Positions 8,801 through 62,796 of a DNA stretch of 64,000 nucleotides are shown piece by piece. Within the stretch, counting starts at the first letter, position 1; each line of letters opens with the position of its first letter. The position numbers and the translations under genes were made by a program. Source of the stretch: Nemertoderma westbladi (Eukaryota > Animalia > Xenacoelomorpha); NCBI GenBank assembly GCA_032718475.1, contig JAUCBJ010000896.1, forward strand, positions 1 through 64,000, written 5' to 3'. The notes under the pieces are model-generated. The model worked only from the letters and a program-made list of their open reading frames with translations, did no database searches and had not been told where the DNA came from.

Positions 8801-8904
8801 TTAAAGGCTAGTTTTTTCGCCTATCAAAAAACCCCAAATCTGCCTCACACAAGTAAAATAGCCCACTATGAATAGACCATCTCAGCTAAGGAAACTGTAA
8901 TTGT

Positions 8905-28708: not shown

Positions 28709-29642
28709 GTAAATGTTAGGGTTATGATTGATGGTGTTATGCGGGACTGATATACTGTATGTATATAGGTAGGAGGATTCCAAAGAGATACCGGTTACTA
28801 CCTAGGTCAGTACGGCAGGAGGTAGAGATAGATAGATTCAGTACAGCAGTACATTGTATTCGTCCGTCCTGCTTTACTTTATGCCGTCATACCATCAGTA
28901 TGGGACTGCAGGTTTATAGGAATATATAGATATATATGATCATCACTTATCTTTATTATATCTTCACGTTTACCTTGGGAACTAACAAATGGCGCTGCGA
29001 GTTGAAAGAAACCTATGGGCCTTGATACTGACTAACTGGACTACAGACCAGGGCCACGCATTGCTGCTTTGATTAGGCCTATTGATTTGATACTACATCA
29101 GCAGGACGGTAATTGCAACTACAGAACTACTGACCAAATTGCTACATCAGTACAGACCGGTACGGATCAACCGTACTGAGGTCACTGCTACAGCTTTTAC
29201 ATACGTACCGTCTCACCGTCGGTTGCTACCGCCACAACCAGACAACGATTACCGTTGCTTTCAAAACTTCTACCTACCATTCCAACCAGCCTAGACCGTA
29301 CATTCCTGCATTCGTTTTTTCTTACACCGGTATTACAAACCGGGCTGGCAGGAGGGAAATAGGCCAACCCTGCTACTCTAAGCCTACAGTCTGACAGTAA
29401 CTACAAACATTTCTACCAGTAAATTGCTATTGCAGTATTGTAACCCGTCTTTAAAAATATTCCAGTTATACTTGTTGACTGGAAGGAAAGAACCTGTATT
29501 CTTTGGCCATTCTGCCATTCGTTCATTTGTTCTACAATATGCAATACACCGGTACTCATTACTGATATACCTGTATACAGAGCAATACTTGTCAGACTAC
29601 TGGTAGGCCTAGATCTGCCAAATAAACATTTCTATACATACA

Positions 29643-32600
29643 ATGGCAGCGGCAGCCCCTGTATATACAAGGCTGTTTAAACCTTTCAAACAAACAGACA
29701 AATGGAGTGTCTATAAAACCATGATTTTGACAATTATAAATTCTGTTAGAATACCAGATAACAGTAACCCCGAAGAAGAAAAAAGGAAAATTTTAATTTC
29801 AAATTGTGGAACTGACCTCCTTGAAATAATAATAGATATTATTTACCCAGTAGACGTCAATGATGCTACATTTACAGTCATTATAGATGCTCTCAATGAT
29901 TATTTTCAATCATCCATAAACAAAGAGGCTGAAGTACGCAAATTTATTAGATTGCAGCAATTGCCTGCAGAATCTGTAACTGATTTTGTTAAACGTCTAC
30001 GCTCTGGGTCACGCTACTGTGAATTTGGAACAAGCCTGGACAGCAGGCTGAAAGAACAATTGCTTGCAGGCATAGCGAATGAATCTATAGCTACAGAATT
30101 GATGCGGTCAAAACCTACAGATTTTGCTACCGCGATTCAAGTTGCACGAAATTATGAAGAGGCATGCAATTTTGCAAAACGAGATATAGACGGGTTAACG
30201 GTACAAATGTCTAAACTAAACCCAAACTATGGGGCTTCTGAGCCGCATAATTATAAAAGTAGTAGTTTTTCACACATTCAATGCTTACGTTGTAATAAAA
30301 AAGGGCATAAATCTAACAGATGCAATGTGTCAGCAAGTATAACATGTCACTTTTGTGGAAATGCGGGCCATTTAGAAGTTGCGTGTTTGAAGAAAAGGGC
30401 CACATACACAAATTCAGGCAGTTTTAAACAGCAACGACCTGATAGACAGTTAAATACAAGTTCTAATAAAACTTGTAAATCATTTAGTAAAGCCCATGCA
30501 GTTGATGTTACAGATACAGGTGAAAGTACAGATGAAGAAGATATGTTTGAACAAATGAAAAGTTTTACTATAAAAGCAGAAATTGAAACCAATCAACTTA
30601 ATAAGGTAGATCCAATGACTACAATCATAACTGTAAATAACTCAAAGCCAATAATTTTTGAGCTTGACACAGGTGCACGTCATTCGGCCATTACATATTC
30701 AACATTAGAAAAGTATATACCAGAATTTAAGTTGGAAGAGAGTGATGCAACACTACGTGGTTACTGTGATGGTACAAAAAAGGTTCTAGGTCTTTGCCAT
30801 GTCACAGTACATATACCCAAATTGAACAAGACAGTTAATAATCTACCATTACTAGTGATCAATGGAAAAGTGAATACACCACTTTTTGGAAAACATTGGG
30901 TGGATACGTTTGGAGAAGGAGTGGATAAGCTAGTAGAAACTGCTCCGTTCATAGTGAAGTCCTTAGTACCCAGGAGTGCCTTAGAAACTATTCTTGAAAA
31001 TAATAGAAATGTATTTGATGGATTAGGATGTTACAATGGTACGCCAGCTAATGTTAGTTTGAAAGTGAATGCCCAGCCCAAGTTTTTAAAGTGTAGAACT
31101 GTCCCCCACGCATTTTGCGAGAAAGTGGAGTTGATATTACAGTCAGATATTGACAAGGGCAGCCTTCGTAAACCACTACCAAATGAAAACATTGAATGGG
31201 CTACCCCACTTGTTGTCGCAAAAAAACCTGGTTTAGATGACAAAATACGAGTCTGTGGGGATTATAAAAGTACATTAAATCCACATATCATAGATGATCC
31301 ATTTCCCTTACCTACATTTGATGAAATTGCAGCAAAACTGGAGGGTGGAGAAGAGTTTACAGTGATTGACCTAAGAGAAGCCTACCATCAGCTTCCTCTA
31401 GATCAGCATTCCCAACTACTTACGACTTTAAATACTCCACTTGGACTCTTAATACCAACTCGTGTTCCTTACGGGATAAAAACCGCAAGCACTAAGTGTT
31501 TAAAAGTTGTTGATGAGGTACTTCAAGAAGTCGACTGTAAAGAATCTGTTGCTGCTTACATGGATGAAATAATAATAACAGGTACAAATCGTCAGGATCA
31601 TTTAGAGAGACTTTGCAAAGTTCTCAAACAATTACAACAACGAAACATAACGTTACGGAGAGAAAAGTGTGCATTTTTACAGGATGAAGTCAAATTCTGC
31701 GGCCATGTCATTTCGAAACATGGAATTGCTCCTGATAAGGACAAAATTGAAGCAGTAGTGAAATTGCAGGAACCTTCAACTACCAAAGAGCTTCAGTCAG
31801 CTTTAGGATGTCAAAGTCGATTTTAACAATGTGATTTCTCAGAAGGATGGAACGACTTTGCATGGCTGCGATTACGCAATAAAGGGGGTCATGCTGTCAT
31901 GGGCGTTGTAACTTGAATTCGAGAAAACTATCTCGCTCACAAACGGATAAATGGTGTCTATAATTGAGGTCAATGAACTTGCTACCTAGGCCTATCTAAC
32001 GTGGGAGGTTATTATGATATCAAGCTTTAATTAGGTTATACCCAAGAGGTTTATAAATAACTCCAAAAACTCACCGGATTGATAATAATCGGCCCCCAAC
32101 CTAGGAGCTGTCTCCAGTAATAATTATTGTGGTTCAATAATATCGGCAATAGGTCTATAGCAATAAGCACCAACATTAACAACCAAACTGTAGGTCAACA
32201 TTACAGCATTAGAAATCTTGGAATATTGAAATATATCCGAAAATAAGGCGAGATAACAGTTTGTAGGGGTTTGGACCCGACAAACGCTGTGTTTCAGAAT
32301 TTCAAATGCCCCAATAATCCATCCTTGAGCTGTTCACGGTACAGACGGTACACGGTACCGCTATCACAAGTAAAGGTTGACTGACACGGTCAGACGGGCA
32401 ATTGAAAGTGATGACTGCAGACTGACACGGTCAGATGTACAAAGTATGTATAAAGTAATGAATACAGACTGACACGGTCAGACTGTACAAAGTATGTATA
32501 AAGTAATGAATACAGACTGACACAGTCAGACTGTAATTAATGATAATAAAAACACAGCGCCAATTTGCCTGTGGACCAACATCGGCAAACCGCCGTTGAC

Positions 32601-34751
32601 ATAGGATTCTTCAACTATTTGAGAAAGTTCATCCCGAATTATGCAGAAATGGCCCAACCCCTTTACAAAATGTTAGAGAAAGGAAATAAGTTTTTGTGGA
32701 CCAAAGTTGAAAGTAAGGCTTTTACCGACCTGAAACGGGCCATCACAAAATATACAATGCTTTGTTTTTTTGATACAAGAAAGGAAACACATCTAATTAC
32801 AGATGCTTCAGAACAGACAATATCTGCAATATTGTTACAGAAGAATACTGAAGGAAATCTATGCCCTATCGAATTCATGTCTGCTTCCCTATCACAATGT
32901 CAGAAGCGCTATTCACAACTTGATCGTGAGGCTCTTGCTATCATTAGTGGAATCCGGAAATTCCGAAATTATTTAATAGGTAGAAAATTCCATTTCATTA
33001 CCGACAACGAGCCTCTCCGACATATATTATCACCTTCAAAGGCATTGCCAGCTCTAGCAGTTTCTCGGCTTCAGCACTGGGCAATGGAGTTGTCATCCTA
33101 TGAATTCAGTATGTCATACATAAAGTCACAATTGAACCCATCCGATTGTTTTACTCGAATTTCGCAACCAGGTAACATTGTAGATGATGATATTGATATC
33201 AAATGCTTTGATATTCAAGAAGAGCAAAACATTCGAGAGATACCATTAAATCGAGATGGTTTAAAAGCAGCCACTGCTAATGATAACGTTTTAAAATTAA
33301 TACTACAGCATTTAAATTGTCCAAATTCCGGAATTGCAAAGGATAAAGCTCTTCATGATTACAAACCTTTAATGATTGAACTATCCAGTAATGATGGAAT
33401 TTTATGCAGAGGAACAGCAACAATAATCTCAATATCACTTCAGAAGAAAGTTCTCCAAGAGCTCCATGGACCACATACTTGCGCACGACGAATGAAAGAA
33501 ACTGCTCGTAATGTAGTTTGGTGGTTGGGAATCTCAAAAGATATAGAACTATATGTGAAAAGTTGTGAAAGTTGCCAGAGATGTGCGAAAGAGGTACATG
33601 TCACAACATGTCCAATGCCAGAACCAATAGAACCTTTTGAAAGAATACATCTTGACTTTGCAGAATACGAATCGACAATCTTCTTAGGAATAGAATGTGC
33701 CAAGACAAAATGGTCTCGAGTTATTGTTCCCAACAAAGCAACAGCAGCTATAGTCATCACTGAACTTCGGAAATTTTTCGCCGATTTCTCTATCCCTAAA
33801 ATTATCGTTGCAGATAATGGTCCCCAATTCCGAGCCGAAGAATTGGATGCTTTTTGCATTGCAAATGGCATTAACCGATGGCCCTCACCACCATATAAAC
33901 CGTCTTGTAATGGTGCAGCTGAGAGACTAGTGCAATCATTCAAATCGTCATTAAAGAAACAAGAAGATGATAATGAAAAATTATCTATGGCAGATCGTAT
34001 AAGTAGATTCATGTTGTTTGACCATAATGCAATAAAATCAAATGGGAAAACCCCCGCCGAGTTAGTGTTAGCGTACAAGCCAAAGACCCGATTAGATAGA
34101 CTGATCAACTTCCCAGCAAAGATCAAGGACCCAAAAAATAGTCCTTACGTTATTGGTGAAGCTGTATGGATACGTAATTATTCACGATTATCTGGGCACT
34201 ATGAGCGTTGGTTGCCTGGTAAAGTGGTTCAATACATCGGAAATAGAATTATCACGGTTGAAGTGTGCGGTGTCATTGTCCGTCGCCACATTGACCAAAT
34301 GAGACGCCGTTATAGTCCATTTGTAGGAACTTCACGCAGTATAGCGCCCCCCGAGATAACTAGTTCGCAACCCCTACCACCATATTACCATAGGTTAATA
34401 AATATTCCGGAAACAACTCCGGTCCATATTCAACGACGTTCTGAGAAGACACTTACCCAGATTCCACTGGAATGCACCTTCGAACCAACACAAGAACGGG
34501 TCGAGAGCTTTGTAACGCCCTGCAACAACCCACCATCACCTCATATTCAACGACGTTCTGAGAAGACACTTACCCAGATTCCACTGGAATGCACCTTCGA
34601 ACCAACACAAGAACGGGTCGAGAGCTTTGTAACGCCCTGCAACAACCCACCATCACCTACGGTACACAACCAGGGTGAACAACTCTCCAATGAACATCTA
34701 GCGAGATACCCACGACGGGCTCATAAGAAACCAAACTATTATGGATATTAA
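29643..34751 (+). CDS. Gypsy gag-pol polyprotein (1436 aa once the solo LTR and one TSD are removed)
   Basis: Two CCHC knuckles, protease FELDTGA, RT (IRVCGDYK, YMDE), RNase H (ITDAS, YSQLDREAL), integrase (HLDF, VADNGPQF, NGAAERLV); SALG/FFNY rejoins in frame. Confidence 0.92.
31809..32601. mobile_element. Solo LTR (793 bp) of an unrelated family inserted in Gypsy pol
   Basis: TGTCAA...TTGACA termini; TSD TAGGA at 31804-31808 and 32602-32606. Confidence 0.85.
34425..34658 (+). repeat. 117-bp in-frame tandem duplication in the Gypsy integrase tail
   Basis: HIQRRSEKTL...CNNPPSP occurs twice. Confidence 0.95.
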
Positions 34752-35114
34752 TATGGGAATAGGAGACTATAATAAGCCTGAACATAATACTAAAAGATTC
34801 ATATTGTGTGTTTTATATGAATTATTTTGTGGGGGGAAATTGTTAGGGTTATGATTGATGGTGTTATGCGGGACTGATATACTGTATGTACATAGGTAGG
34901 AGGATTCCAAGGAGATACCTGTTACTACCTAGGTCAGTACGGCAGGAGGTAGAGATAGATAGATTCAGTACAGCAGTACATTGTATTCGTCCGTCCTGCT
35001 TTACTTTATGCCGTCATACCATCAGTATGGGACTGCAGGTTTATAGGAATATATAGATATATATGATCATCACTTATCTTTATTATATCTTCACGTTTAC
35101 CTTGGGAACTAACA

Positions 35115-35671
35115 GTAAACATAGATGGTCTTTCGATAAGAGATCCCGCACAGCGTAGATACACGTCTCGAAATATACTAAATCCTGCTCGAGTAAAGGC
35201 ATTACACTGAGCGTCGGAGTTGTAGAAGGGTTCAAGAAATCGTCTAAACACGTCGGTATGAATTCTCCCTTCCATGTAGAACGTATGATCTTCTCCGAGA
35301 CAAAGTGGATGTCTTTTAAGAGTCCGAGACACAATGTCGGCGATTAAGCAAACATTCACTGACGACTCTATTGCTAAATAATATTGTAGGACCGCTCTTG
35401 GAGGTGACGTAATAGCCCAATACACGCATCCTCTCCATTTGAGCTGCGATTCAAACTCACTCATATCTGGAGTATCACCTTCTCCATAAGTCTCAATATA
35501 CTTAGCTCTCTTACTTTCCTTATAATCCCAATTGAATAACAGGTAGGAAATGTATCCAGTTCCAGTCTTCTGAGTATTATACTCACGAAAATATCCCTGT
35601 TCTATAGACCACAAGATAAGGGGTCGAGTGTCGACGTAAGGTGTCGGTAGTCGGTCATCGCTGTCCGTCAT
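35115..35671 (-). CDS. Accessory ORF, middle part (unknown function), cut by the Gypsy insertion
   Basis: Removing the Gypsy element and one GTAAA joins ...ERPSMFT to LLPYEGERIV... in frame. Confidence 0.75.
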
Positions 35672-35734
35672 GCCGGCGAAGTCGCTAATTAAGTCCTCCC
35701 TTACTCCTGATCCAATCTTTACAACAGTTTTATC

Positions 35735-37375
35735 TCAAATCATATTTCTTACCATCTTCGGTAGCATTCTAGCATCGATATTACAAGCTTGGTCCATCTT
35801 CTTTACTATGTCAGTGATGAGATGGTGTCGCTTTGTATTTACTGGGGGTATCGGCATTCGTTTGTCGCTCCTCTGTCTACTGAAAACGTGCAAGACTCCG
35901 TCCGCCGCTCTAATTTGTATAGTCTTAGAAGTTAAACTCTGTTGATGACTGCCGCCCTCATTATCGTAAAACATGTAACCATTTTCCTGAAACGATCTAA
36001 ACGTTCTATTCCATTCGTCCAACAATTCTTCCGAAGGTTGCCAAATCTTCTCTATGTCCTTATCATCTTCGAAACGAATAACCTTACCTCGCCAATCTGC
36101 GGCAATATCTTTATCCGACTCGAAGGTTCCAGTTCCAATCCATAAACGAATCGTTCTGGTTAAATATCCTTTCAAATTACTCGGAGCTATATCAGCACCA
36201 GCTCTATCCAGTTCCTTAAAGTCTTGAATATGAGGTGGAATGTTATACACGACCTTTTGAGTAATATGTCTACGTAAATCATATATCTTACTCATATCGC
36301 TAAAAACAACTGCAGGAAGGAACTCCAAGTTTGAAATGATTTCTGGATGATCCACGATGGGTATTTCGTACGTCGTATCCTGTCGGACTGGTATACTAAT
36401 AGAAAAATTGAGTGTCGTACTCAATGGTTTCGTAGTCGAAGTACTATATGGTTGCATTTCTCTTGTCCTCTCCGGGGATGCAATCTGTAGTCTCTGAATA
36501 ACGTTTTGAGCAAAGTTTATGCTCTCGAAAACTTCCGGTGTCATCTCCTTAGCTGGAGTTTGATCGTGTGACGTCCAATGGTAAGGTAGGCTCGCGAGTC
36601 TTCCGCCCCATTCTTCCATCTCACCTTTCTCGAAAGCCTTGTAGGCTCTGTATAGGCTAAGAGCTTCTTTCTTTTCGCGGGTTGACTGATTCGCCTCGTC
36701 CAGCGTAAGTTCAAATGCATCGGGTTCAACAACCTTAGGTGGGTAAACAACAGTTTCTCCCGCCTTTGGTCCAGTCATAGCAAACGAATGATATGGATTT
36801 GATAAAGGATACCCTCCTTCCTGGTAGCGTAGTTGTTGATGGTTCGAACACCTCGCCAATATCGGTTCAGGATTTTCCTTATTCAAACGCATCGGAATCG
36901 CATTTCGTTGTTCGCGCATACAAGAACCGCATTGATAATAAAGTTTATAAACTGAAAATGCTTCCTTGGTTTCTCTATCGTCCCCTCGTGTTCGTCTGTA
37001 AAGATGCATTCCATCAAATTCATCGCGTACCGCGGGCATAGGTTCGTGCGCCTTCAGGTATTGCATAGTATGATACAAACGACTAATTTCAGTATCGGGG
37101 TCTTCGCTAATGTCTCCCGTATCACACAAAGCGTCGTACGGGTAAAGTTCATTGAAGGTTTTGCGTAAACTTTCGATTCTTTCATTTAATGCGTTTTGCC
37201 TTCTCTTTAATACATTTGAGTCATATTTAGTTCTTGCGAGTTTTGCCGTACTTTCTGATAATTCTTTTATACCAAATATAGTATAGTCTTTGGCTCCAAA
37301 TCTCTCAAATGGCGCTGCTGCTTCCTCTTGGATATCATATCCCCATCTCGGCTCTCCATGTATCTCCTTCTCCAT
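35735..37375 (-). CDS. Accessory ORF, 5' part (unknown function; first ATG at 37375); possible CxxC...CxxH metal site
   Basis: Long sense ORF downstream of pol; in frame with the next part across one TGA; no evident signal peptide or transmembrane segment. Confidence 0.75.
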   Translation of the reverse strand: MEKEIHGEPRWGYDIQEEAAAPFERFGAKDYTIFGIKELSESTAKLARTKYDSNVLKRRQNALNERIESLRKTFNELYPYDALCDTGDISEDPDTEISRLYHTMQYLKAHEPMPAVRDEFDGMHLYRRTRGDDRETKEAFSVYKLYYQCGSCMREQRNAIPMRLNKENPEPILARCSNHQQLRYQEGGYPLSNPYHSFAMTGPKAGETVVYPPKVVEPDAFELTLDEANQSTREKKEALSLYRAYKAFEKGEMEEWGGRLASLPYHWTSHDQTPAKEMTPEVFESINFAQNVIQRLQIASPERTREMQPYSTSTTKPLSTTLNFSISIPVRQDTTYEIPIVDHPEIISNLEFLPAVVFSDMSKIYDLRRHITQKVVYNIPPHIQDFKELDRAGADIAPSNLKGYLTRTIRLWIGTGTFESDKDIAADWRGKVIRFEDDKDIEKIWQPSEELLDEWNRTFRSFQENGYMFYDNEGGSHQQSLTSKTIQIRAADGVLHVFSRQRSDKRMPIPPVNTKRHHLITDIVKKMDQACNIDARMLPKMVRNMI

Positions 37376-38036
37376 AATTAGAGGTGTAGTTACATAATCA
37401 TTACTACTAGAGGGAATACAACAGAGTTTATAGTTAGTTGTGAGGAGACGTGAGAGTTTCGTCTGCCTTTTGGGCTTCGACAACGCTCTAACCTCCTACC
37501 CATAGCCTAAGATCTAGGGTTTCTTTAATGACACGCTGCTTCTTATCTAAAATTTTTTGCTGAAATAAAAACGAATTTGGGCTAAACTGGCTGTGAGTCT
37601 AAAATACTCACCTTTTGATCCCAAACTATTATCAGAAAATAAGCAATCAAGAATTAGTAATAAATATAGGGGAGTCTATTTTGACGTAACTTATTGAAAC
37701 AAGACCGTGTAAAATTTAATTAAAATTTTAAGAAAGGCTCGCAAGTCTTCCTCTCTTGTTTCTCTAATTTTTAAGTTCCACCCGACTGTACCCTGAAATC
37801 TATTCACTGGAGAAAATTTTGAAAATTTTTCAAATCCAAATGGATTGTCTAAAATTTCGAAAATGTCTCAATATTGTGAGTTCCAAGTAGAATTCCATTT
37901 CTTATACCTACAAATCCCGCTCCTATGTGACACATAAGGGTACTACCCTCAATGTTCACATATAAAGACAATGGAATTCTACCGCTGTCCTTACTACGGT
38001 GTACAGGTACGTGGAAATCTATTTGTAAACTCCTAA

Positions 38037-41000
38037 TTATTTACTAATATTTGTTGGAGATTTGTAGTCTCCAGACTCGTTACGAGTCTCTTCAAGAAGT
38101 ACGAGACGTTGAGTCGGTCTGTCAACTGTACGACCGTCAATTGTCCGTACCGTCACAGTTCTTGTCACTCCATCCATAGATGGATGTGTGGCTAAAATTA
38201 CACCTGTTATCCAGAAGCGTCTTTTTAGATTCACTTCCGCTAACAGCACGTGATCTCCCGGCTTTAATGCCCGGGTGTTATTGTACCAGTTTGTTCTGGC
38301 AGAAATAGAGGGCAAATAATGGTTTTGCCATATCTCCCAGAATTTGTTAGCTAGTAGTTGCGTGATTTTCCACGCTTTTCTACCGTAGCTATCGCCTTCC
38401 ATTGGAAAAGAAATAGGCGTCAAAGTAGTCGGTGCCTGCATTAGCAGGTGTGCAGGTGTTAAAGCAAACTGGGATTGTTTGTCATCGGGTACTAATACTA
38501 TTGGTCTAGTATTTAGTATTGCCTCGATTTCAACAAACAATGTGGTCAATTGGTCGTCTGTCAATATGTGGTTTACTGGAATGACCTTTGCCATTGCCGT
38601 TTTGATAGATCTAATCAATCTCTCCCAGACTCCGCCTCTCCATGGACTATCTGGAGGATTAAACTTCCAAATAATCTTGTAAGGACGTAGTTCGTTTGAG
38701 ATTTGATCGTGATCTAATTTCTTAAAGGCTCTAGCTATTTCATTTCGAGCACCAACAAAGTTTGTCCCTTGGTCTGAGTACAAGCATTTCACTAGTCCGC
38801 GTCTAGCGATAAATCGCCGCAATGCTAGTATAAACGCGTTGGTGGAAAGATCCATCACACGTTCGATATGAACTGCCCTACTGGACATACATGTGAAAAT
38901 CAGTCCCCAGCGTTTTACTAGTATACGTCCACGTTTCGTATGTATGGGACCAAAGCAATCAATTCCAGTCTCTGTAAAAGGTGGTCTGAATGCTTGAAGT
39001 CGTGCTTGTGGAAGTTCACTCATTTCTTGGGTACCTATTCTAGAATGTACCTTTTTACAAATAATACACGTACGTGTCACTGAACTTAACGCTTTACTGG
39101 GTCTAATCAATACAAATCTTGTACGTAAGTAGGAAAGACAGTGGTGTCTTCCAGCGTGTTTCAGATGTAAATGTGCGTCCAGTATCATTGCACGTTGTAA
39201 TTCGTGATGCTGCGGTATTATTATTGGGTACCTAAAGTTCGTGTTAAAGTCAATGTTTTGAAGCCGAGATTTATGACAAATTAAGCCATTATAAATTATC
39301 GGACTCCAACTCAATATTGGTGACGACTTGATTGGTTGACCTTGATTTATAGATGTGAATTCGCGTGCGAAGTATCGCAGTTGGTAATGGCGAATTAATT
39401 TAATTTCACACCTGTCAATCTCAGTCAATGTAAGTCGACGTGTAAAGTCGCATTTGCCTTTAACGTATTGTACAAAACGTACAATCCACGCTAATTTTCG
39501 GCAAGCATTTGTCCAAGAATCTGTTAGGTTTACAATACGGTCGACGTAAGTATTTGTGACGTCATCAGGTAAGTCAATGGAGAATTTGGAAGGTTTTGAT
39601 TTACTAGAAGGTCCCACGGGTCCGCCGGTAAGTATTCCCTTGTTGACTGTTGATCCGTCCGGGTCTACAAGTAATTCGTCCTTCCTTGTTTTCTTACCTT
39701 GATTGTCAGTACTTTGTAAGTCGATCGTTAATGGTGGTTTGAACTCTATGGGGTCACTGGGTTTCGGTAAACTTAATTTTCTGCCGATATTAATCCCAGG
39801 GCTCACCATAGGTTGCAAGTTTGGTATGTCTCTTGAGCGCAAAGTAACACCTGTATTTACATTAGCGTAGGTACTACCCACATCTGTAATACATGAGGTT
39901 TCACTGTGCTCATGGTTGCTCAAGTGTGTCAAATTTGGTAGTTTGTCAATACAAGGCTGCTCCAATAGGGAAACTGCGGCTTTACTATTTGTCAATATGT
40001 TACTAGTGTCTGGTAGAACATTTTGTGACATGTCTGGTAAAATGTTTCGCGGAACATCCGGCGAAATATCTAGTGACGTGTCTGGCAAAACGTCTGGTTG
40101 ACCGTCTAGTAACGCGTCTGGTGATACGTCTGGTAACGTGTCTGGTTGACCGTCTGGCGATATGTCTGGTGTAGAAAGGCTCGCAAGTCTTCCGTTCTTG
40201 ACTTTTGAAGTTATCGCCTTCCATTTCGCCTTCGGTTTTTTCTTAAGTTTAGCCGCCGTCTTTTTCTTTGCTTTCCCTTTCTTTGGTTTTTTAATTTCGG
40301 CGTCTTTAGGGATAGTGTTAGACTTGTTGTCGTATAGTGGCGGCCAATGTAGTGTTGATCTTTGCAAGAATTGTGGTCCGTGCTGCCAAAATTCTTTGTT
40401 CTCCGATTTACAGAATTCCTCAGGCATCATTCCTCGCGACGCAATATCGGCTGGGTTTTGTGGTCCGGGACAATGTCGCCAATCTTCCTTTATTGAACGG
40501 TCTAGAATTTCTGCGCGACGGTTAGCTACGAATGTCTTGAATTCGAGTGTGTCGTTGTTTATGTAAAATAAAACCAACGTCGCGTCAGTCCAATAAAATA
40601 TCTGTAAACTTGACTGTAGTTCCGTCTGTATAAGGTTCACGATTGTGGTTGACAGGGTTGCTGCTTGTAGCTCAGCGCGTGGTGTCGTCATATACTTAGT
40701 AGGCATAGTCTTAGCCTTAGAGGTAATGAGCGAAACATCAAACTCTTCTGAGTCTACTTGTCTGCGCAAGTACGCTGCCACTCCAAAGCCGTTGTCACTG
40801 GCGTCGGAAAAACAATGTAATTCCAAGTTGTCGGGAAATGTCGTTTGTAATAAGTACACTCTGGGTATGGAATAATCCTCTAGTGAAGATAATTCTGCCT
40901 CCCAGGTTTTCCATAAATCCACTTGTTCTGATGAGATCGGCTCGTCCCATGTCAGTCCATCCTTCCAAATACTGCGCATATAGATTCTGGCTTGCAGTAT

Positions 41001-42539
41001 TATTGGACTGATGAATCCTAATGGATCGAATAATCGACTCAATTTTGACAAGCAGGATCTCTTTGTCAGAGTGTTTTCTTGAGTGTCCAGTCTCACCTTC
41101 ACTCGAAAGTTGTCCGTGTTTGGGTCCCAAAAGAGCCCCAACACCTTGGTCGTCGGTAGTGGTTCAAACTCTAGGTCTATTTCACCACCTCCACGCTCAG
41201 TCGTTCCGAATGAGTCTACCAATTCGGCACTGTTTGAGGCGAATTTGGTGAGGTTAAAACCTCCGCCCGCTAAGCAGTCCCGTAATTGATGTGCTACTGT
41301 TATAGCACGTTCTACTGTGTCACAACTCTGTAAACCATCGTCCACGTAAAAGTCACGTTCTACGATCTTGATTATCTCTGGGTCATATATATGTTTCTGA
41401 TCCCTAGCGGCTTGCTTTAGGGCGTACATCGTACAGTTTGGGCTGTCCCTGGCACCGAAAACGCGAACTTGCATTTGGTAAGTCGCTGGTGGTAGACCTA
41501 AGTCTCCTTCCGTGTACCAGAGGAACCTCAAACTGTCTCTGTCTCGCTCTAACGCTCTCACTTGGTGAAACATCGCTTCAACGTCACAAGTAAAGGCTAC
41601 CTGGCGTTGACGGAAGCGCATAATCACCCCCATAAGATAATTATTCATGCTCGGTCCATCCATCAACTCGCTATTGAGGGACATTCCCTCAAACAGAGCC
41701 GCACAGTCATTGACTACACGTACTTTGTCTGGTTTGTCGGGATGTCTCACGTAGTGATGTGGTAAGTAGTATGTCTGGTCTGTCACAATCTCTGGGTTAG
41801 TCATTCTGATGGCGTATCCCTTTGTTAAATACGTCTCCATCTGAGTATTATACTGCAGATGGGCTTTCTCGTCCTTTAATAGATGTTGTCGTATTGAGTG
41901 TAAACGTCTTAAGGCTAGCGGATAGTTATTTATGAGTTTAGGACGTTGGTTACGCCATAGCATCCCTACCTCATAATGTCCGTCTTTCGTCTGGCGGATA
42001 GTATCTTCCATGATCTTCAAAGATTGTTTCTCTTGTTCCGACATACATGGATCGTAGCTACCAGGTTCAGCTGTATCTTGTTCTAACCACCTGATAGTCT
42101 TCTCCGTTAATTCTTTGTCCAATGCAGCTTGTTCCACTTGATGATTTCTTAATGCGTTATCATCGATATCGACGGGCATTGTTGAGGTTATTGGTGTAGG
42201 TAGACTCGCAAGCCTTCCGGCGTTATCATCTGTCGTCGATGGAATCTCTGGCTGACTCGTCTTCTCCCCAAGTTCTAAACTCACCTGGTGGATTAGCTGC
42301 TCCTTGTGACTTATCATACTAGCTACACACGTCGTATCATGTTTTGTCGAATGTAGTGTAGTATAGTCTATGTCGTGTGAAAAGGAATGAGTCGAAGTTG
42401 TAGTTAATAAACTACATGTACTTTGTATATCGTCTTCCTCGTCACTTATATCCAGTGTGCGCACAGGCGCTCGAGTATACCACCCTATCGGCGTTCTACA
42501 GGCGTATGCGTTTCCAGCTACGACTGCCGATGGTCTGGT
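38037..42539 (-). CDS. BEL/Pao pol: RT, RNase H, integrase
   Basis: YYLPHH..KVRVVNDC, DVEAMFHQV, RDFYVDD, LHCFSDAS, TPRAELQAA, NPADIASRG, TGIDCFGP, YSDQGTNF, GGVWERLI, LTPAHLL; in frame with the protease ORF across one TAA (42540-42542). Confidence 0.95.
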   Translation of the reverse strand, partial: TRPSAVVAGNAYACRTPIGWYTRAPVRTLDISDEEDDIQSTCSLLTTTSTHSFSHDIDYTTLHSTKHDTTCVASMISHKEQLIHQVSLELGEKTSQPEIPSTTDDNAGRLASLPTPITSTMPVDIDDNALRNHQVEQAALDKELTEKTIRWLEQDTAEPGSYDPCMSEQEKQSLKIMEDTIRQTKDGHYEVGMLWRNQRPKLINNYPLALRRLHSIRQHLLKDEKAHLQYNTQMETYLTKGYAIRMTNPEIVTDQTYYLPHHYVRHPDKPDKVRVVNDCAALFEGMSLNSELMDGPSMNNYLMGVIMRFRQRQVAFTCDVEAMFHQVRALERDRDSLRFLWYTEGDLGLPPATYQMQVRVFGARDSPNCTMYALKQAARDQKHIYDPEIIKIVERDFYVDDGLQSCDTVERAITVAHQLRDCLAGGGFNLTKFASNSAELVDSFGTTERGGGEIDLEFEPLPTTKVLGLFWDPNTDNFRVKVRLDTQENTLTKRSCLSKLSRLFDPLGFISPIILQARIYMRSIWKDGLTWDEPISSEQVDLWKTWEAELSSLEDYSIPRVYLLQTTFPDNLELHCFSDASDNGFGVAAYLRRQVDSEEFDVSLITSKAKTMPTKYMTTPRAELQAATLSTTIVNLIQTELQSSLQIFYWTDATLVLFYINNDTLEFKTFVANRRAEILDRSIKEDWRHCPGPQNPADIASRGMMPEEFCKSENKEFWQHGPQFLQRSTLHWPPLYDNKSNTIPKDAEIKKPKKGKAKKKTAAKLKKKPKAKWKAITSKVKNGRLASLSTPDISPDGQPDTLPDVSPDALLDGQPDVLPDTSLDISPDVPRNILPDMSQNVLPDTSNILTNSKAAVSLLEQPCIDKLPNLTHLSNHEHSETSCITDVGSTYANVNTGVTLRSRDIPNLQPMVSPGINIGRKLSLPKPSDPIEFKPPLTIDLQSTDNQGKKTRKDELLVDPDGSTVNKGILTGGPVGPSSKSKPSKFSIDLPDDVTNTYVDRIVNLTDSWTNACRKLAWIVRFVQYVKGKCDFTRRLTLTEIDRCEIKLIRHYQLRYFAREFTSINQGQPIKSSPILSWSPIIYNGLICHKSRLQNIDFNTNFRYPIIIPQHHELQRAMILDAHLHLKHAGRHHCLSYLRTRFVLIRPSKALSSVTRTCIICKKVHSRIGTQEMSELPQARLQAFRPPFTETGIDCFGPIHTKRGRILVKRWGLIFTCMSSRAVHIERVMDLSTNAFILALRRFIARRGLVKCLYSDQGTNFVGARNEIARAFKKLDHDQISNELRPYKIIWKFNPPDSPWRGGVWERLIRSIKTAMAKVIPVNHILTDDQLTTLFVEIEAILNTRPIVLVPDDKQSQFALTPAHLLMQAPTTLTPISFPMEGDSYGRKAWKITQLLANKFWEIWQNHYLPSISARTNWYNNTRALKPGDHVLLAEVNLKRRFWITGVILATHPSMDGVTRTVTVRTIDGRTVDRPTQRLVLLEETRNESGDYKSPTNISK

Positions 42540-45500
42540 TTACCACACTTGATGTAGGTTGAATTGATCTGTCCCGATCAGCATTGCTACCGACCTATAG
42601 TTGACAGGACATTCAGGTACACCAAGGTGTCTGAAGTACTTACGGTCCTCCAAGGATTGTTCTGGGACAGGACCTAGTAGGTTACTAAAGTCCTTGGTTG
42701 CCGCAAAAGTCAAATCCTTAAAGGGCAACAAAGACCTCTCCTTTTCGCTGTGTTGCGATTTCGGAAGGAGAGTGTCTAAGTTTAACTTAACTCGTGTCAC
42801 TGGTATTGCACGTTGTCCATGCATACTACTTACGGTGTAACTGACGTTCTTACCTTGTTGGAGATCCGTCACAACATCAGCTACTTTCTCATCCACATAA
42901 CTATGTGATGAGGCTGAATCCAGGATAGCGTAGATCCTTTTGCTCCCTTTGGTGCCAGTAATCTTGACAGGAATTATACTAAACCCCTTTAGTTGATCAG
43001 GCGTCAGATGCGCAATCGATGGTTGTTTGTCTCCAGTATCAAAGTAAACGTCGTCGTCTTCCGACTCTTCATCCGACGATCCTGATTGTTCCGAGAAGCA
43101 ATCTCTAATGTGCGTCACGAAAGTCGGTGTTGTTTTCGACTCTCGACCCTTATATGCTGTGTTGCATCTTGCTGCCGCTTCCGGGTGTTCCCTGGTGAAG
43201 CGTTTGGTCGGCGTATGACTGTCTGTGTGGAGCAAACCGTCATGGTTGCGTCCACACGAAGGACAGGTGTCTGTATTTGGGCAGTCTTTACGGACATGTC
43301 CATGTAGTGTACACCGCCAACAAGAGTCCAATGGCCGTATTTGTAGTCGTCGTTCCTCCGAGTTCAATTCGCGGAATAGTCGACAACCTCTCAGTTTATG
43401 GCTAGTATGTCGTTTACCTAGCCGTTCGCAATATTGGCAACCGCTGAAATCCACAGTTAGCTGTTGTCTGGTCTGTTTGGTCCCAATTGGTGCGGATACC
43501 TTATTATTGTCCGAAAATTGTCGGGTGTCGGTCGATGTTGCGTAAGTAACCGTCTTGGTGGATGTTGTTTGGGGTTTTTGTCGGTTCGAGGATGGTAATG
43601 TTATTCCTTCCGCCACGATATGTTGGTCCGTGTAGTTCGAACGCGTCTCGACTACTGCCTCTCTGGATATCAGTAAGTAGACGTCTTCCAACTTCAAGAA
43701 TCCGCCCCTCTCTTCTCGCTGATATTCTATCTTTCGCCACTCCCGACGAAGTCGATGGTGTAATCTTCCTATTATTTTCAATAGGACTGTCGGAGTGTTT
43801 GCGTAGTCAAGTTGTCCAATCGAGCGTAGTGTAGTAATGGCGTTCTTAATCTCGTCAGCTAATTTCAGTAAGTCAACGGGTTTTGTTATAGCCCCCCCCC
43901 TTACAGAGTTCTTCTATCACTGACTTAGCCATACTAACGGTGCCTCCGTAAATCGAAGTTAAGCGATCATACGCTAGTTCGAAGGCATCTGGTACACCGA
44001 CAAAGGTCTCCGCTAGACGTTTCGGTTCTCCCGTCAGCGTTTGTAGCAGGTAGTTGAATTTCTCCCTCGATGTAAAGGCGCATGCTGCTATTTGTGTCTC
44101 GATGTAGTCCACAAAGGTGTGCCAATGTTTTGAATTACCTGAAAACTTCGGTGGTTGTTGCACCGGTAGCCCTTGTCTTGCTGCGAATTTCGCTATCTCC
44201 TCGGCCACGTTCAAAGTTTTGCGTCCTTGGTTGGCAATCGAGTTGATGTTCTCTCGTCTTGGCGCTTTTCCTTGATACGAGGTGTTTCTCGAGGGTTGCT
44301 TTCTTTGTTGCTTCGGGTGTCTAGAGTGTTTCCTCTAAACGTTCCTCTATCTGGGCCAACTTGTCTACAACTGGGCGCATTATTTCGGCGAGTTGTTGCG
44401 TACTAATTGCGTCCGTTGGTTGTAACGCTTTCTGTGTTGGTGTATTTTGTGGAGGATTGTCGATAAAGGAGTTATCTGAACGCTCACGTTTATATTCGTC
44501 GGCCGCTCCTGTTCTAAATACCTCACGTTTCGGGTAATCCGATTCACTCGAAGTACTACTGTCACCTGGATACGGTGGTCGACGTGCTCGTGTCCGTTGC
44601 GTTGTTCGAATTCTAACATTCCGTTTCGGAACATCGTCCACTGGTCTCCGTTGTTCGGTAGGCTCGCGAGTCTTCCTCGAAGTCGTAGATTGCGATGTAA
44701 ACTGGTTAAACGGTTGCGTTTCCACTGGTCTCCGTTGTTCGGTAGGCTCACAAGTCTTCCTCGAAGTCGTAGATTGCGATGTAAACTGAATCGGTGGTCG
44801 AGTAACAGCGTTTGAATCCAAAGGCCTTGTAGGTCTAAACACAGTTGGGTAAGCGTAGTGTGTAACGGGTTTAGGTGTCGAAGGTGGACTCACCTGTTTA
44901 GTCGTCAGTAATGCAGGTGCGGTCAACAAACTACTACGATCTGTAATCGGCGGGTTACTTACCTTGACTTTTAGAATGGGCGACGACGTTGCTCTTGGCT
45001 GCACAAACTTGTCCGGAATAACAAACCTGTGTTCCGTCGCACCATGGATAGGAGAAATGTTACTACTACCCGCAATCGAAACAGGTTCTTTAGTCGTAAT
45101 TGGTGCAAACATAGGAGTTACTTGAGGGAATCTTTGACATAAGTCTTTAACTAATTGTCTTTCTCGCCCAGGTGCCCCTACACTTCCTTCCTTCATTCGT
45201 TCCTGAATTTGGCGGTGCCTTACCTCTATCTGGTCCAAATCATGTCCGTCACGAGATCTCATCGATCGATCGCGGGCTAGAAGATCCAGATTTTCCTTGG
45301 CTTCGGCTTCTATAGTGCTGTTGTTGCTGTCTGGAAATTTCTGACGTCACTATACTTACCTCGCCAATTTCGCTACGAATACTCACTAACGATTGGTCCA
45401 GTATTCCCGGTGCCGATTCGATTTGTACGGGCGAAGTTTCCCTCGTATATTCTGGCACGGTTTCCAAATCGCCGACGTCTTCGCCGCACATACGTAAGTG

Positions 45501-46151
45501 GTCCGTCAGATGTTTCAATTGTCCATCCAGTCGGTACAGTTCCTGTTCTTCCTTGGGCTGAAATAATTCGTCCGAAACTGACTCACCTAACAACTGGTCC
45601 GCTTGTTCCTGTTGTATCTGCCTAATCGTCGACTTAAACTGAATCAGTTTCTCTCTAGCGATCATTAGTTTCTCGAGGATTCTAAGTTGAGTATCCACGT
45701 CCTGTCTCTGTCTAGCTAGATCTTGTAGACCAATTAGATTATCTACGGACTTATGTACTCTACTTTGTACTCTAACCTGGAGGGTGTAGAACTCAAACCG
45801 AGACATCGGAGCGGTCAACTCGTCTAATATGCGTTGGCCTTCTCCAATACTCCTGGTAATATGCGCCATGTAGCCGCCGACGCTTCTAACCACACTCTCC
45901 TGGCTTCCTACTGAACTTACCATGTCCGTTTCCCTGTATCTAGGTTGCGGGACCGTTAGAAAGTCCTCGGTCCTGCCGTCGCCTCGTACTACGGCATCCG
46001 GTACTCCCGTTGGATGTACTGGTGACGCACACGGTGTAGGTTTGGTAGGCTCGCGAGTCTTCCCCTGTGGTTCTTCCGCTGCTGACTTATCTCCGTCACA
46101 TGAGTCATAGTTGGTAGGTGTATTCTTCGTATAGTCTTGTTTGTCACTCAT
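42540..46151 (-). pseudogene. BEL/Pao gag-protease, frameshifted (pieces 46151-45249, 45262-44321, 44214-43873, 43781-42540)
   Basis: PPKFSGNSKHWHTF..EKFNYL capsid-like motif; triple knuckle CQYC..H..C, CWRC..H..C, CPSC..H..LLH; protease YAILDSAS. Confidence 0.88.
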
Positions 46152-46949
46152 TTCGGTAGTTGTAAGTCAAGTAAAGTGAGTGTCAAAGTATCGAATTTAC
46201 CGTATTTATATCTAACGGTACTAATTACAGTCATATAAAATTAGCCTACCGGCCGATTTTATAGCAAATGGATAAAATTAGCCTAGACGGCCAATTTTAC
46301 AGCAAATAAATGTCACGGTATAAGTATATAATAAAATTAGCCTAACGGCCAATTTTATAACAAATAAATCGGATAACGATATACGTTATCAAAATATAAA
46401 TTTAACACAAATAATACGGACTAATTCAGCAATAAACAAAGAAATCGTACGGAATGCATAAATACTTGAGACAGTGGAACCCACAATAATTTTAACTAAT
46501 ATGGTAATGCCTAACTGATTAATGCAACTTTTCAAACTCACCCACTCCAATAATTCTCCAGAAAAAACAGATTCCCAGATACAAACCGGACGTGAACCTT
46601 TCCGTTTCCAACGCTGCGGACGAAGTGCGATTTTCCCAACCAAAATTGTTGAGTTATCTATCTCCCAAACTCGTGAAACACGGTCTTGCTCCCGTTACAG
46701 TCTAGAAATGAGGTCTGAATCCTGAAAAACAAAAGAGTTAGGTTTTACTTTTACGAAAATTTTGTACCGGTACAATATGGTATTTAAACCCTTTTAAACA
46801 CCGGTATTCAATTCCAAAATGTTTTACACGCGGTTCAAATCAAATTTTATTTCAAAAAATTAGCACTTAGCTAATCAAATATAAATTTTTACCTCAAAAT
46901 ACAAAATTTTCAAATAACTTTAGTCCTACCGAACCGTAGTTCAGTAAAA

Positions 46950-46960
46950 CATATTCCTAC
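46950..46960 (-). promoter_or_regulatory. Non-tRNA primer-binding-site candidate GTAGGAATATG, complementary to LTR 47993-48003
   Basis: Abuts the LTR end; no TGG; perfect 11-bp inverted match inside the LTR. Confidence 0.65.
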
Positions 46961-48881
46961 TATTGTGAAGAGACAGTAACAATACCTGCAATATCATACT
47001 ACAAAGTTTGTGAATCAAATCATAATCCGACCTTCTCACCAAAACAGTAAACTCCAAGTAAGCGAATATATTGCAGTATCGGTCTCTTATAACAGGTGAG
47101 GCAGAAAACAGTCTACGGACAGACAAACTTCGATAAAACAAAATCCCGCGCAGCGAATCCTAAAATCAGGCTGACTCACTGACGGACTAAGGGGCTCGTA
47201 TACTTTGCCGCGGTGTGATTTATATGGTTGGGCGAAAAGGACGCTAGCTAGGTGCAGAGATTTGGAGATATCTAACTAGCGGGCAAAGTGCAGTACGGAC
47301 AAAAGTTAATTTTATATATTTTGAGGTGTAAATAATTTCTAACGCGCGTGTGTTAATTCTGAACAGTCAAGATCAGTTTTGCTCCTTCATATATATAATT
47401 ACTGGGTACGGTGTGCATTTTACGAATATTCTAATTTTGTAACTTGTAGGTCCAATACTCACGAATGATAAGGCTCCTTCCCCTCTTGCGTATTTCCAGG
47501 ACTCAAATTCAGGCATAAGGTTAATACTACGCCCAGAATTCGGCAATTTTAATTTACCAGGTCCCTAATACTAAGAAGAAATGTGTTAGTTTACTACAGT
47601 AGGCGTACTGTTACTAATAGCTAGCCTGGCGTCCTATCTAGAATTTTGGTTACCTAGGTGGGCTTGGTAACTTCCTATCAGGATGTCGGCGGGGACACGG
47701 TAGATGTTAGTATATCCCTAATAGCCTCAATTTATTTTGCGCCTAGTCGTAAACTGCCCTACCGCCTGAACGGTACAATCCTAATTCAGGTGAAACACAG
47801 TAACTCTCCTGGCCTACAAGTTCTAATGCAATGGACACCGTTGTACTACAAATAGTCACAGACGCACCTGTACTTAGCAAGAGTTAGGCGTACAGTTTGC
47901 TGCACCCTACCAATGTGTATGCTTTGTACCGGTGTGCCTACGTCCTATCTGCGTACTAGTATCTCTGCCTGAGCTCTCCTCTCCTCTCCCCCGTAGGAAT
48001 ATGAAGGTCTACTGCGGTTTTTTCCTGAATCAAAACAGTACAGTCCCTAGATGTAATTTTAGGCGTACAGCGTGTCACTACCTCTACCTTCGATCTTTGG
48101 TCTTATACTTAGGTAGCAAGGCATCGAACGCTGTCTAACCTTTCAGGCGATGGGTGAATAACTGAGAGTGATATTGCGGGTTGTCTCCTGTCTACATTCC
48201 TTGGATGTTCCCGTTCATTGCTGCGGCCCGATGTTTAGCCAGCCATCCTGTCCCTCAGTTGAGTTCACCGTGGTGAAGCATAGTAAAACAGATAGAAAAG
48301 GGCAGATGTGACAAGTATTTCTAACTTTTATTACAAAATCAAACAATAACTATTATACAATAAACAGAATAGATTAAATCGCAAGACTGAGATGTAATAG
48401 TGATGTAGTGAATATTGAAGATTGAGATTGATAACTAATGAACGAAACTGCACCTTTTATACCAAATTTGTGCCGTAATCAATCGAGAAAATTCTCGATT
48501 GTTCTATGAGTTCTAACAGAATTTTAAAGATAGCCATTGGTCCAGCAAATATATAACTTGTACGACATTGGTTACAATCTAATAACTACAGTCTCATTGG
48601 TTAATCTTACTTCGAGCAAATGCAATTAATTTGTAGCGGTCAATTTAAATGAGTTGAAATTCTGCACAAAAAACAATTCGCACCTACTAGGATTCGAACT
48701 CAATACACACTACATATAATTTCCAACGCTCTACCGACTGAGCTACTGAACCACTTGACTAATCATCGTACAAATAGATATAGCAAATACAAATGAGGAC
48801 TTAATGTAATCTTTAGCAAAGTTAATTCGAATAAAATAAAAATTTTGAAAATCCACGGCGTTTAGAGAATATAATTCTATA
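46961..48881 (-). repeat. Family 1 LTR in the 5' position (upstream of gag)
   Basis: Near-identical to 24536-26456. Confidence 0.92.
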
Positions 48882-51798: not shown

Positions 51799-52010
51799 AA
51801 AACAATTTGCACCTACTAGGATTCGAACTCAATACACACTACATATAATTTCCAACGCTCTACCGACTGAGCTACTGAACCACTTGACTAATCATCGTAC
51901 AAATAGATATAGCAAATACAAATGAGGACTTAATGTAATCTTTAGCAAAGTTAATTCGAATAAAATAAAAATTTTGAAAATCCACAGCGTTTAGAGAATA
52001 TAATTCTATA
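51799..52010 (-). repeat. Partial family 1 LTR (first 212 bp) forming the true element end
   Basis: Matches 26245-26456 and is followed by TSD AGAGA. Confidence 0.9.
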
Positions 52011-61663: not shown

Positions 61664-61823
61664 CTTCGTCTTTAGTAGCCGTCAGTCACAGTCTGTCAGG
61701 CCAGTTGGTTGGATCTAGTTCTATCACTGTCAGACTGTTAGGGCAGCTGCTAGGATTCTATCTCTGTCAGGGCAGCTGGGCGGATCTAATTCTATCACTG
61801 TCAGGGCAGCTGGGCGGATCTGA

Positions 61824-61832
61824 TTCTATCAC
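61824..61832 (-). promoter_or_regulatory. Non-tRNA primer-binding-site candidate GTGATAGAA, complementary to LTR 62018-62026; reiterated at 61790, 61756 and 61719
   Basis: Abuts the LTR end; no TGG; inverted match inside the LTR with extended pairing. Confidence 0.65.
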
Positions 61833-62796
61833 TGTGACGGGATCTACGGATCCCGGTTTATCCGTTGGGTTTTCTATCTACGCGTCCCTGCCGTGTGTGA
61901 AAGGTAAAAGAGTTCTGATGTTCGGTTATATGTATAAGGTATAATATAGTTGATATATAGGCTTTAGTATAGTATGGCACAGTTACCGGTAGATAAGTAT
62001 GATGGCGGTAGCGGACGGTGATAGAAGTCACCGTTCCACCCTACTGAACTAACTGAGTAAGCTGAGTGAATGATTGCTGTACAGGTAATATATACTGCAC
62101 GGGTTTGGCCGTTACAGTACTTAGTCGATGCTGTCCCCCCATTGGCTAATATCCCTGTTGGCACCCTTTGCCCCCCTCTGAAGTGCTTCCCTTCGCCCTT
62201 GCTGTTCTCTCTTGGTTAGGGGTTTGGCCCCTGACCCTTATTGTGTGTGTCTCCTTTGGGGCCTGTTGTCCCCGTTTACTGGGGTGACACGAGGTTGATT
62301 GGTAATCAACCTCGTGCTCCCAATATTGCTTAATGGCTCACTCTATGGGTTTGTGTTAGCGGAATTGGATAAGCTAACACAAGGCGCAAACGTGATGAGT
62401 GATGAGTTTAGGTGGTTTAAGTTCAGTTCGATGGCCTATCTCTCTCTGAATTTCTGAGTTATTAAATTGTACCCTAAATTTGCAATTTTCAGCCCTATTC
62501 TTCTATTTATTTTAATTTACTTTTAACCCTACTGTCCTACTACTTGCTACTGCCTATGGATTATTCTATCTCCTAATCCACATTCTGGCCTACTCTGTGG
62601 GCCTGTGCAGTACAACAGTATGCATCGCGTGGCCACATGATTTATCCAGCTGTACTCACATGCCCCCCTCTCGCTACTAATTACTGACTGCTAACTAATA
62701 TCTATATCATATATACCCTTCTACCTCTATCTCTATCTTTTACTAACTAGTACTACATACTTTCTTGCTAACTCTTACTCTCTCTAACTAACTAAC

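Follow-up and report, generated by a model that had tools for sequence, protein, structure and literature searches.

Candidate self-priming of a BEL/Pao retrotransposon from Nemertoderma westbladi: complementarity between the bases behind the long terminal repeat and the repeat itself

The family-1 BEL/Pao element

The window analyzed here is a 64,000-nucleotide (nt) stretch of Nemertoderma westbladi DNA (assembly GCA_032718475.1, contig JAUCBJ010000896.1, positions 1 to 64,000), and its main subject is a BEL/Pao retrotransposon on the minus strand, here called family 1, for which priming of minus-strand DNA synthesis by the element's own RNA is proposed. Self-BLAST placed two long terminal repeats (LTRs) of 1921 bp each at 48881-46961 and 26456-24536, and 9 differences were found between them by direct comparison. 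The insert spans 52010 to 24536 inside a minisatellite and is flanked by a 5-bp target-site duplication (TSD), TCTCT, at 52015-52011 and 24535-24531. Because the repeat stops at 46961/24536 and the TSD flanks the insert, the LTR end is fixed independently of the pairing described below; the TSD on both sides also sets the ends of the element as TA..TA, not TG..CA. The structural features of family 1 are as follows.

46961..48881, minus strand: LTR adjoining the internal region, TA..TA ends (self-BLAST)
24536..26456, minus strand: 3' LTR, carrying a copy of the LTR-internal site at 25578-25568 (self-BLAST)
51799..52010, minus strand: true left end of the insert, the first 212 bp of the LTR followed by duplicated 3' region (self-BLAST)
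38037..46166, minus strand: BEL/Pao gag-pol, split into five open frames in this copy (Pfam DUF1759, Peptidase_A17, DUF5641)

Assignment to BEL/Pao follows from the proteins, with Pfam matches to the Gag domain DUF1759 (E 1e-8), the Pao peptidase region Peptidase_A17 (E 1e-42) and the integrase domain DUF5641 (E 1e-20) in the order protease, reverse transcriptase (RT), RNase H, integrase. The acidic motifs of RT, RNase H and integrase are present in the last gag-pol frame, and paired LTRs with a 5-bp TSD are present as well, though the ends are TA..TA. Of 229 homologues, the best are BEL polyproteins that reach 43% identity; most of the named ones come from marine invertebrates. Family 1 is high-copy in the DNA runs of the organism.

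The 5' end of this copy (52010-46961) is rearranged and consists of 212 bp of LTR, a 13-nt filler and a duplicate of the 3' region. Specifically, 51785-46961 duplicates 29362-24536, including part of a nested Gypsy element and the BEL 3' region, and the duplicate has diverged as far (22 differences in 4827) as the two LTRs have from each other (9 in 1921).

Complementarity between the primer-binding position and the LTR

Minus-strand synthesis begins at the bases just behind the LTR. The initial annotation had described these bases in family 1 as 11 nt that lack TGG and are complementary to the element's own LTR, and the description was borne out. The features concerned, together with an internal control, are listed below.

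46950..46960, minus strand: primer-binding site (PBS) position, 11 nt directly behind the LTR (offset 0) that lack TGG and are the complement of 48003-47993
47993..48003, minus strand: LTR-internal complement, candidate 3' segment of a self-primer, ending AC, with a predicted cut after 47993 (sequence match)
46924..46949, minus strand: hairpin of 11-12 bp with a UACG loop, directly behind the PBS (folds; 3/500 shuffles)
47974..47992, minus strand: purine run just past the end of the candidate primer, predicted to pair with pyrimidines at about 46973-46967 (U5 end)
28990..29001, plus strand: ordinary TGG-type PBS of the nested Gypsy element, internal control (read from sequence; Pfam Gypsy domains)

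Positions 46960-46950 are the exact complement of both 48003-47993 and 25578-25568, and the pairing ends at 11 nt. In 20,000 dinucleotide shuffles a match of this length was obtained with p=0.00045 for offset 0 and 0.0026 for offsets 0-3. Within the element's own interior, LTR matches of at least 11 nt were found at 9 of 11,741 positions, the PBS itself counted. The anchored duplex has an energy of -14.4 kcal/mol, equalled by none of 100 shuffles. According to the International Committee on Taxonomy of Viruses (ICTV), Belpaoviridae have LTRs of 0.2-1.2 kb and an 18-nt PBS for the 3' end of tRNA-Arg or tRNA-Gly (PMC8742986); such a PBS was not found in family 1, where TGG is absent after the LTR. 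The nested Gypsy has its ordinary TGG site, and such sites are therefore detectable in this DNA. Self-primers have been predicted where 10 nt or more, beginning 0-5 nt past the LTR, are complementary to it (PMC6317226, partial text), and family 1 has 11 nt at offset 0. No tRNA or structured-RNA genes were found in the window by ARAGORN or Rfam.

An additional helix between CAGTA and TACTG, also proposed initially, was rejected. The letters are complementary as described, but the helix is not predicted, as TACTG is taken up by the local UACG hairpin behind the PBS (-12.1 kcal/mol), which wins all folds that include this stretch. An anticodon-loop reading of the 11-mer, based on general tRNA features, was dropped.

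The same arrangement in family 2

A second BEL family in the window has the same arrangement in different letters.

61833..62379, minus strand: family-2 5' LTR, 547 bp, TG..CA, paired with a second LTR at 56166-55620 and flanked with it by the 5-bp TSD CCTTG (sequence comparison)
61821..61832, minus strand: primer-binding position of family 2, lacking TGG, with further copies downstream in tandem units of 34 bp
62018..62030, minus strand: LTR-internal complement, 9 perfect pairs (62026-62018) and 3 beyond a one-base bulge

Family 2 is an RT-less element whose gag-protease frame matches 84 of 120 BEL polyproteins; it can hardly be aligned to family 1 (gag-protease E=0.001), and it is unrearranged. 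The 9-mer pairing has p=0.002, the anchored duplex is equalled by 4 of 300 shuffles, and the fold predicts that the pairing reaches further upstream. The PBS of family 1 does not fit the LTR of family 2, nor vice versa. The family-2 primer end lies 77 nt past a TATA box that is conserved with the LTR of a third family.

The PBS motif of family 2 is repeated three to four times in the 34-bp units (61832-61700), with ACA before each, and the predicted fold can use a later copy. The family-3 LTR (53425-52881) is about 71% alike to that of family 2. Its homologous site, at about 53065-53050, carries substitutions and is preceded upstream by an insertion of 22 nt. From this altered site a PBS unlike that of family 2 is predicted for family 3, whose 5' end lies outside the window.

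Covariation among metagenome relatives

Relatives were obtained as metagenome loci fetched by RT-RNase H alignment, and the best 79 of at least 554 confirmed loci were used. Among these 79, a repeat was present in 34 and the LTR end could be fixed in 13, which form the main count; the remaining 66 stand outside it. The boundaries of L017, L049, L055 and L067 were shifted by 1-9 nt by eye, those of L049 and L055 after the match had been seen. No BEL loci were found in viral contigs by single-protein or alignment search. The relatives share 41-74% RT identity among themselves and 36-41% with family 1, and the 13 are therefore distinct families, not independent origins. Family 1 forms a long branch with no starred sister in the tree, which holds no named reference elements.

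The absence of TGG, first noted as a peculiarity of family 1, proved instead to be the rule in this part of BEL/Pao, as none of the 13 relatives has TGG within the first 8 nt past the LTR (L055 included after its boundary was re-set). Furthermore, the test for covariation between the bases behind the LTR and an LTR-internal complement, suggested in the initial annotation, was passed by family 2 and by 12 of the 13 relatives, each of the latter pairing over 10-15 nt with its own LTR, beginning 2-4 nt past the LTR. The pairing is contiguous in four (L006, L041, L055, L059) and exists only across a GTAAG..YAG junction in eight (L013, L014, L017, L026, L034, L049, L054, L063); a match present only across a splice junction points to pairing at the RNA level. 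When PBS and LTR were crossed between families, 5 of 210 pairs reached 10 nt, three of these among L013, L017 and L026, and at pseudo-sites none of 150 matched as well for each of the 12 relatives. The spliced test was restricted to canonical GTAAG..YAG sites; with any GT..AG admitted, 26 of the 210 cross pairs reached 10 nt or more. A splice-built primer was also tested for families 1 and 2 and rejected, the contiguous match being better in both.

In all 14 matched families (the 12 relatives with families 1 and 2) the pairing starts 0-4 nt past the LTR, and in 11 of them the candidate primer ends in AC. The pairing and its place, at offset 0 in family 1, are thus found again in other letters in family 2 and in 12 of 13 relatives. 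As the sequences differ, each is fitted to its own LTR and many fit only after splicing, a shared host primer cannot match all of them. Polyadenylation hexamers of the form A(A/T)TAAA were found 9 times in the 1435 nt downstream of the primer end in the 12 relatives and not at all in the 3402 nt upstream (p=2e-5). Self-priming requires this placement, which suggests that strand transfer would use a repeat starting just behind the cut.

Nine further loci without a fixed LTR end gave at least 11 nt in three (L016, L018, L048), 10 nt in one and 9 nt or fewer in five; they are multiple-tested and uncounted. The spliced and contiguous types did not cluster in the tree beyond shuffles (103/500 and 97/500). 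Non-canonical termini recur, with both ends of family 1 altered in step to TA..TA and relatives L006, L034, L049 and L055 ending in TA rather than CA. In L045, L046 and L057, whole BEL elements stand in head-to-tail tandem arrays with a 6.1-6.3-kb period, which may be real arrays or assembly circles.

Proposed priming of family 1

The transcript signals that bear on how family 1 could use this pairing are listed below.

48429..48601, minus strand: predicted RNA polymerase II promoter with three CCAAT boxes, TATA at 48461 and a predicted start at about 48429 (read from sequence)
48327..48332, minus strand: first AATAAA, on the upstream side, 340 nt ahead of the candidate primer's end (sequence)
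47731..47736, minus strand: second AATAAA, on the downstream side, 256 nt beyond the candidate primer's end; it may signal where the replicating RNA ends (sequence)
46722..48139, minus strand: candidate 1418-nt GT-AG intron that would excise both the LTR site and the PBS (one X4 contig joint, splice-site context)

The initial proposal that this lineage primes minus-strand synthesis from its own RNA gains support from the covariation across families. Taking all versions together (in cis, with a second template, or from a nearby start), comparison of the sequences makes a self-derived primer highly probable. We hold with moderate confidence that family 1 primes in cis, from its own RNA and with an internal cut. 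Unspliced RNA would start near 48429, its segment 48003-47993 would pair with the PBS at 46960-46950, and a cut after 47993, probably by the element's RNase H, would free a primer of about 437 nt. RT would then extend this primer through U5 as far as the cut, giving about 1030 nt of strong-stop DNA, and the new DNA would transfer to the 3' LTR via the repeat beginning at 47992. For this, the replicating RNA would have to extend past the 3'-LTR copy of the AATAAA at 48332 and terminate beyond the one at 47736. A separate spliced mRNA, without the site and the PBS, might serve translation. The intron is suggested by a joint in one contig of run X4 (depth 250, 25 nt on one side), the run type being guessed, and the joint is absent from X1, X2, X3 and X5. 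If the intron is real, it could yield an mRNA without site and PBS, much like the short mRNA of Tf2.

Several observations weigh against this route. The TATA box at 48461 was confirmed, with the three CCAAT boxes upstream, and it places the candidate primer site about 437 nt into the predicted transcript, unlike in Tf1, as the initial annotation had cautioned. A fold of the full leader from 48432 gives the 11-nt helix a pairing probability of 0, and an unanchored 40-nt duplex is unexceptional (equalled by 34 of 300 shuffles). The purine run just 3' of the putative primer end, likewise noted at the outset, is present with its predicted U5-pyrimidine partner, but this pairing is not above shuffles (65 of 300 as good). 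A flanking duplex of the Tf1 type, in which the bases that follow the primer pair with the end of U5, exceeds shuffles in only 1 of the 14 families, and in family 1 the other flank folds as a local hairpin. Relative L067 fails the strict test at 6 nt; by eye, 12 pairs can be drawn with one G-U and a non-canonical donor. A change at 48001, seen at 11% of depth in X1, 9% in X3 and throughout X4, would break one pair, and no compensating change at the partner position 46952 was seen among the 40 of 71 variant rows listed, X4 barely covering the PBS. Finally, none of the 12 relatives shares the AATAAA that family 1 has upstream of the primer end. Summed contig depth in X4 is about 17,000 above 48420 but only about 900 in U5, and a diverged contig of X5, with a loose end at 48300, keeps the upstream AATAAA (a weak indication, read by eye and with the run type guessed). 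If X4 is RNA, its drop in depth hints that most family-1 transcripts end before the site, contig depth being a poor measure and the run type a guess. At 46950-46960 itself no variants were present among the contig rows listed, and no listed piece is shown bridging the LTR-PBS junction.

The observations on the first AATAAA lead to an alternative in which the primer is still self-derived, but all full-length RNA would end at that signal (about 48310), so that the site lies in U5. Either one such RNA or an excised or short transcript would supply the primer, and the new DNA would be copied from an uncut co-packaged RNA, or transfer to it, to restore the rest of U5 and R. The classic spacing of TATA, start and AATAAA (48461/48429/48332) fits such an end, as does the candidate intron, which contains both site and PBS, and the X4 depth step and the hexamer kept in X5 lean weakly the same way. 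A second AATAAA is nevertheless present at 47736, and the hexamer always lies downstream of the primer end in the 12 relatives, by which the simple route in cis looks ancestral. We regard the two-RNA scheme as possible but improbable. Its wider form is equally tentative, namely that a broad BEL/Pao branch may self-prime, often via a host-spliced LTR intron, with family 1 drawing its primer from one RNA and its template from a second, uncut one. In the literature searched, an internal-U5 primer downstream of a poly(A) signal with a second uncut template is a route undescribed for LTR elements.

A closer parallel to Tf1 would arise if a second start at about 48003-48050 made the replicating RNA with a short primer near the cap, the 48461 promoter serving mRNAs. 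Only from such starts (48050, 48021 or 48003) do folds give the helix a probability of 0.7-1.0, for 10 of its 11 pairs, and Tf2 has alternative starts with and without the self-primer (PMC5341516, partial text). However, the sequence around 48030-48003 shows neither a TATA box nor a clear initiator, the RNA would still have to read past 48332 at its 3' end, and the family-2 primer end 77 nt past its TATA means that the pairing segment is not the first 11 nt there either. Such a start is distinctly unlikely.

Slightly less likely still is a helix that acts as a structural element in packaging, dimer formation or translation control, with some host RNA, a tRNA half or a small RNA, as primer. Anticodon-loop tRNA fragments do prime some elements without TGG (PMC6317226, PMC10886601, partial texts), and the strong hairpin right behind the PBS marks the region as structured. 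Against a structural role, the pairing falls at 0-4 nt past the LTR in 14 families, exactly where DNA synthesis must start, and the sequences vary by family and track each LTR, eight of them across splice junctions. A chance match, or a by-product of the rearranged 5' end of this copy, is scarcely credible even with that rearrangement and with no listed contig piece shown bridging the LTR-PBS junction by 31 nt per side, as the match has p=0.00045 and the cross-family result, in unrearranged family 2 and 12 of 13 relatives alike, largely refutes it.

Comparison with known systems

Cleavage of the Tf1 self-primer requires RNase H, and such cleavage is, to our knowledge, proven for Tf1 alone. In the proposed cis route of family 1, the likeness to the Tf1/sushi group is one of predicted pairing only, with no tRNA site and about 11 nt right past the LTR, and cleavage is proposed. 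Tf1, Tf2 and Tj1 of that group have no tRNA site, and about 11 nt past the LTR pair with the LTR (PMC4600332, PMC5341516, PMC10085805, partial texts); in Tf1 and Tf2 the self-primer is cut from the element's own RNA with RT (PMC5341516, PMC4600332, partial texts). The group differs in consisting of Ty3/gypsy chromoviruses, whereas family 1 has BEL/Pao domains and no chromodomain match and is not a member. The Tf1 self-primer is the 5' end of the RNA, whereas the segment here would lie about 437 nt in for family 1 and about 46-54 nt in for family 2, from predicted starts. The flanking duplexes that make up the Tf1 'pretzel' (PMC10085805, partial text) are, as a three-duplex structure, unsupported across these BEL families, and in eight BEL relatives the segment is built by splicing, which sets them apart from Tf1/sushi.

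Self-priming has also been predicted for the Tcn1 (gypsy) and TAR/Houba/Osr-1 (copia) lineages (PMC6317226, partial text), from the same kind of evidence as here, the complementarity criterion. These predictions imply that the trait arose more than once. The lineages are plant and fungal elements of other superfamilies, and no splice-built primer is mentioned for them in the portion of the source available.

Within its own superfamily, family 1 resembles the ICTV Belpaoviridae in domain order, DUF1759/Peptidase_A17/DUF5641, 5-bp TSD and an extra 3' open reading frame (ORF), and differs in the missing tRNA site, the 1.9-kb LTR, the TA..TA ends and a short polypurine tract. Because Belpaoviridae are defined by proteins, the missing tRNA site lowers the textbook statement, not membership. 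Among the LTR groups of animals, BEL/Pao ranks second in abundance (PMC3118150, partial text); the official view assumes that a tRNA primes its replication, about which little is understood (PMC8742986). The literature searched, with GyDB, Repbase, most subscription papers and supplements outside its coverage, yielded no account of self-priming in this group. By term counts in the available text, the main BEL/Pao survey has no occurrence of primer, PBS or tRNA, and the Sinbad paper none of PBS or tRNA. The present case would be a known mechanism in a new variant, within a superfamily officially held to be tRNA-primed, and its support, which is comparative, is strong.

If a large branch of BEL/Pao self-primes, the ICTV description needs change. 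The LTR superfamilies with known or predicted self-priming would then number three, PBS-based annotation would miss these elements, and they would presumably escape control via tRNA 3' fragments. Splice-built primers would link replication to host splicing. Family 1 offers exact, testable RNA ends at 47993/47992, and its unusual geometry separates priming in cis from priming in trans.

Other features of the window

An extra 3' ORF is found in three BEL families of the window (37495-35115 with 28713-27244 in family 1; 55592-54163; 1-1253).

27244..37495, minus strand: family-1 extra 3' ORF with zinc-knuckle-like motifs, broken by stops and the Gypsy insertion (ORF reading)

The zinc-knuckle-like motifs gave weak zf-CCHC matches only, with no clear Pfam family, and the ORF is not env-like by these tests. 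No match was found against 120 BEL polyproteins, the frame at 1-1253 having only been read from the sequence. Just ahead of the family-1 ORF, strong splice donor and acceptor motifs lie at 37612-37560 on the minus strand, which suggests a subgenomic mRNA for it. A fourth BEL-like family is represented by a 3' LTR from 1333 onward on the plus strand, with the same short purine tract as family 1.

The U3 region of family 1 contains a tRNA-derived unit of the RNA polymerase III type at 48752-48668 (minus strand), also present at 26327-26243 and 51881-51799. It has a perfect A box at 48745 and a near-perfect B box at 48700-48690 with tRNA spacing, followed by six T; neither ARAGORN nor Rfam called it. 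The LTR fragment at the left end of the insert terminates in the T run of this unit. Similar tRNA-derived boxes occur in Helenus LTRs (PMC10886601, partial text); here they lie within a coding BEL element.

The nested Gypsy element (28711-35114) has 277-bp LTRs, a TGG-type PBS and a 117-bp tandem duplication at 34425-34658. A complex higher-order satellite occupies 4300-17400, with periods of 4217 bp and 450-1350 bp and one inverted copy at 16156-16322.

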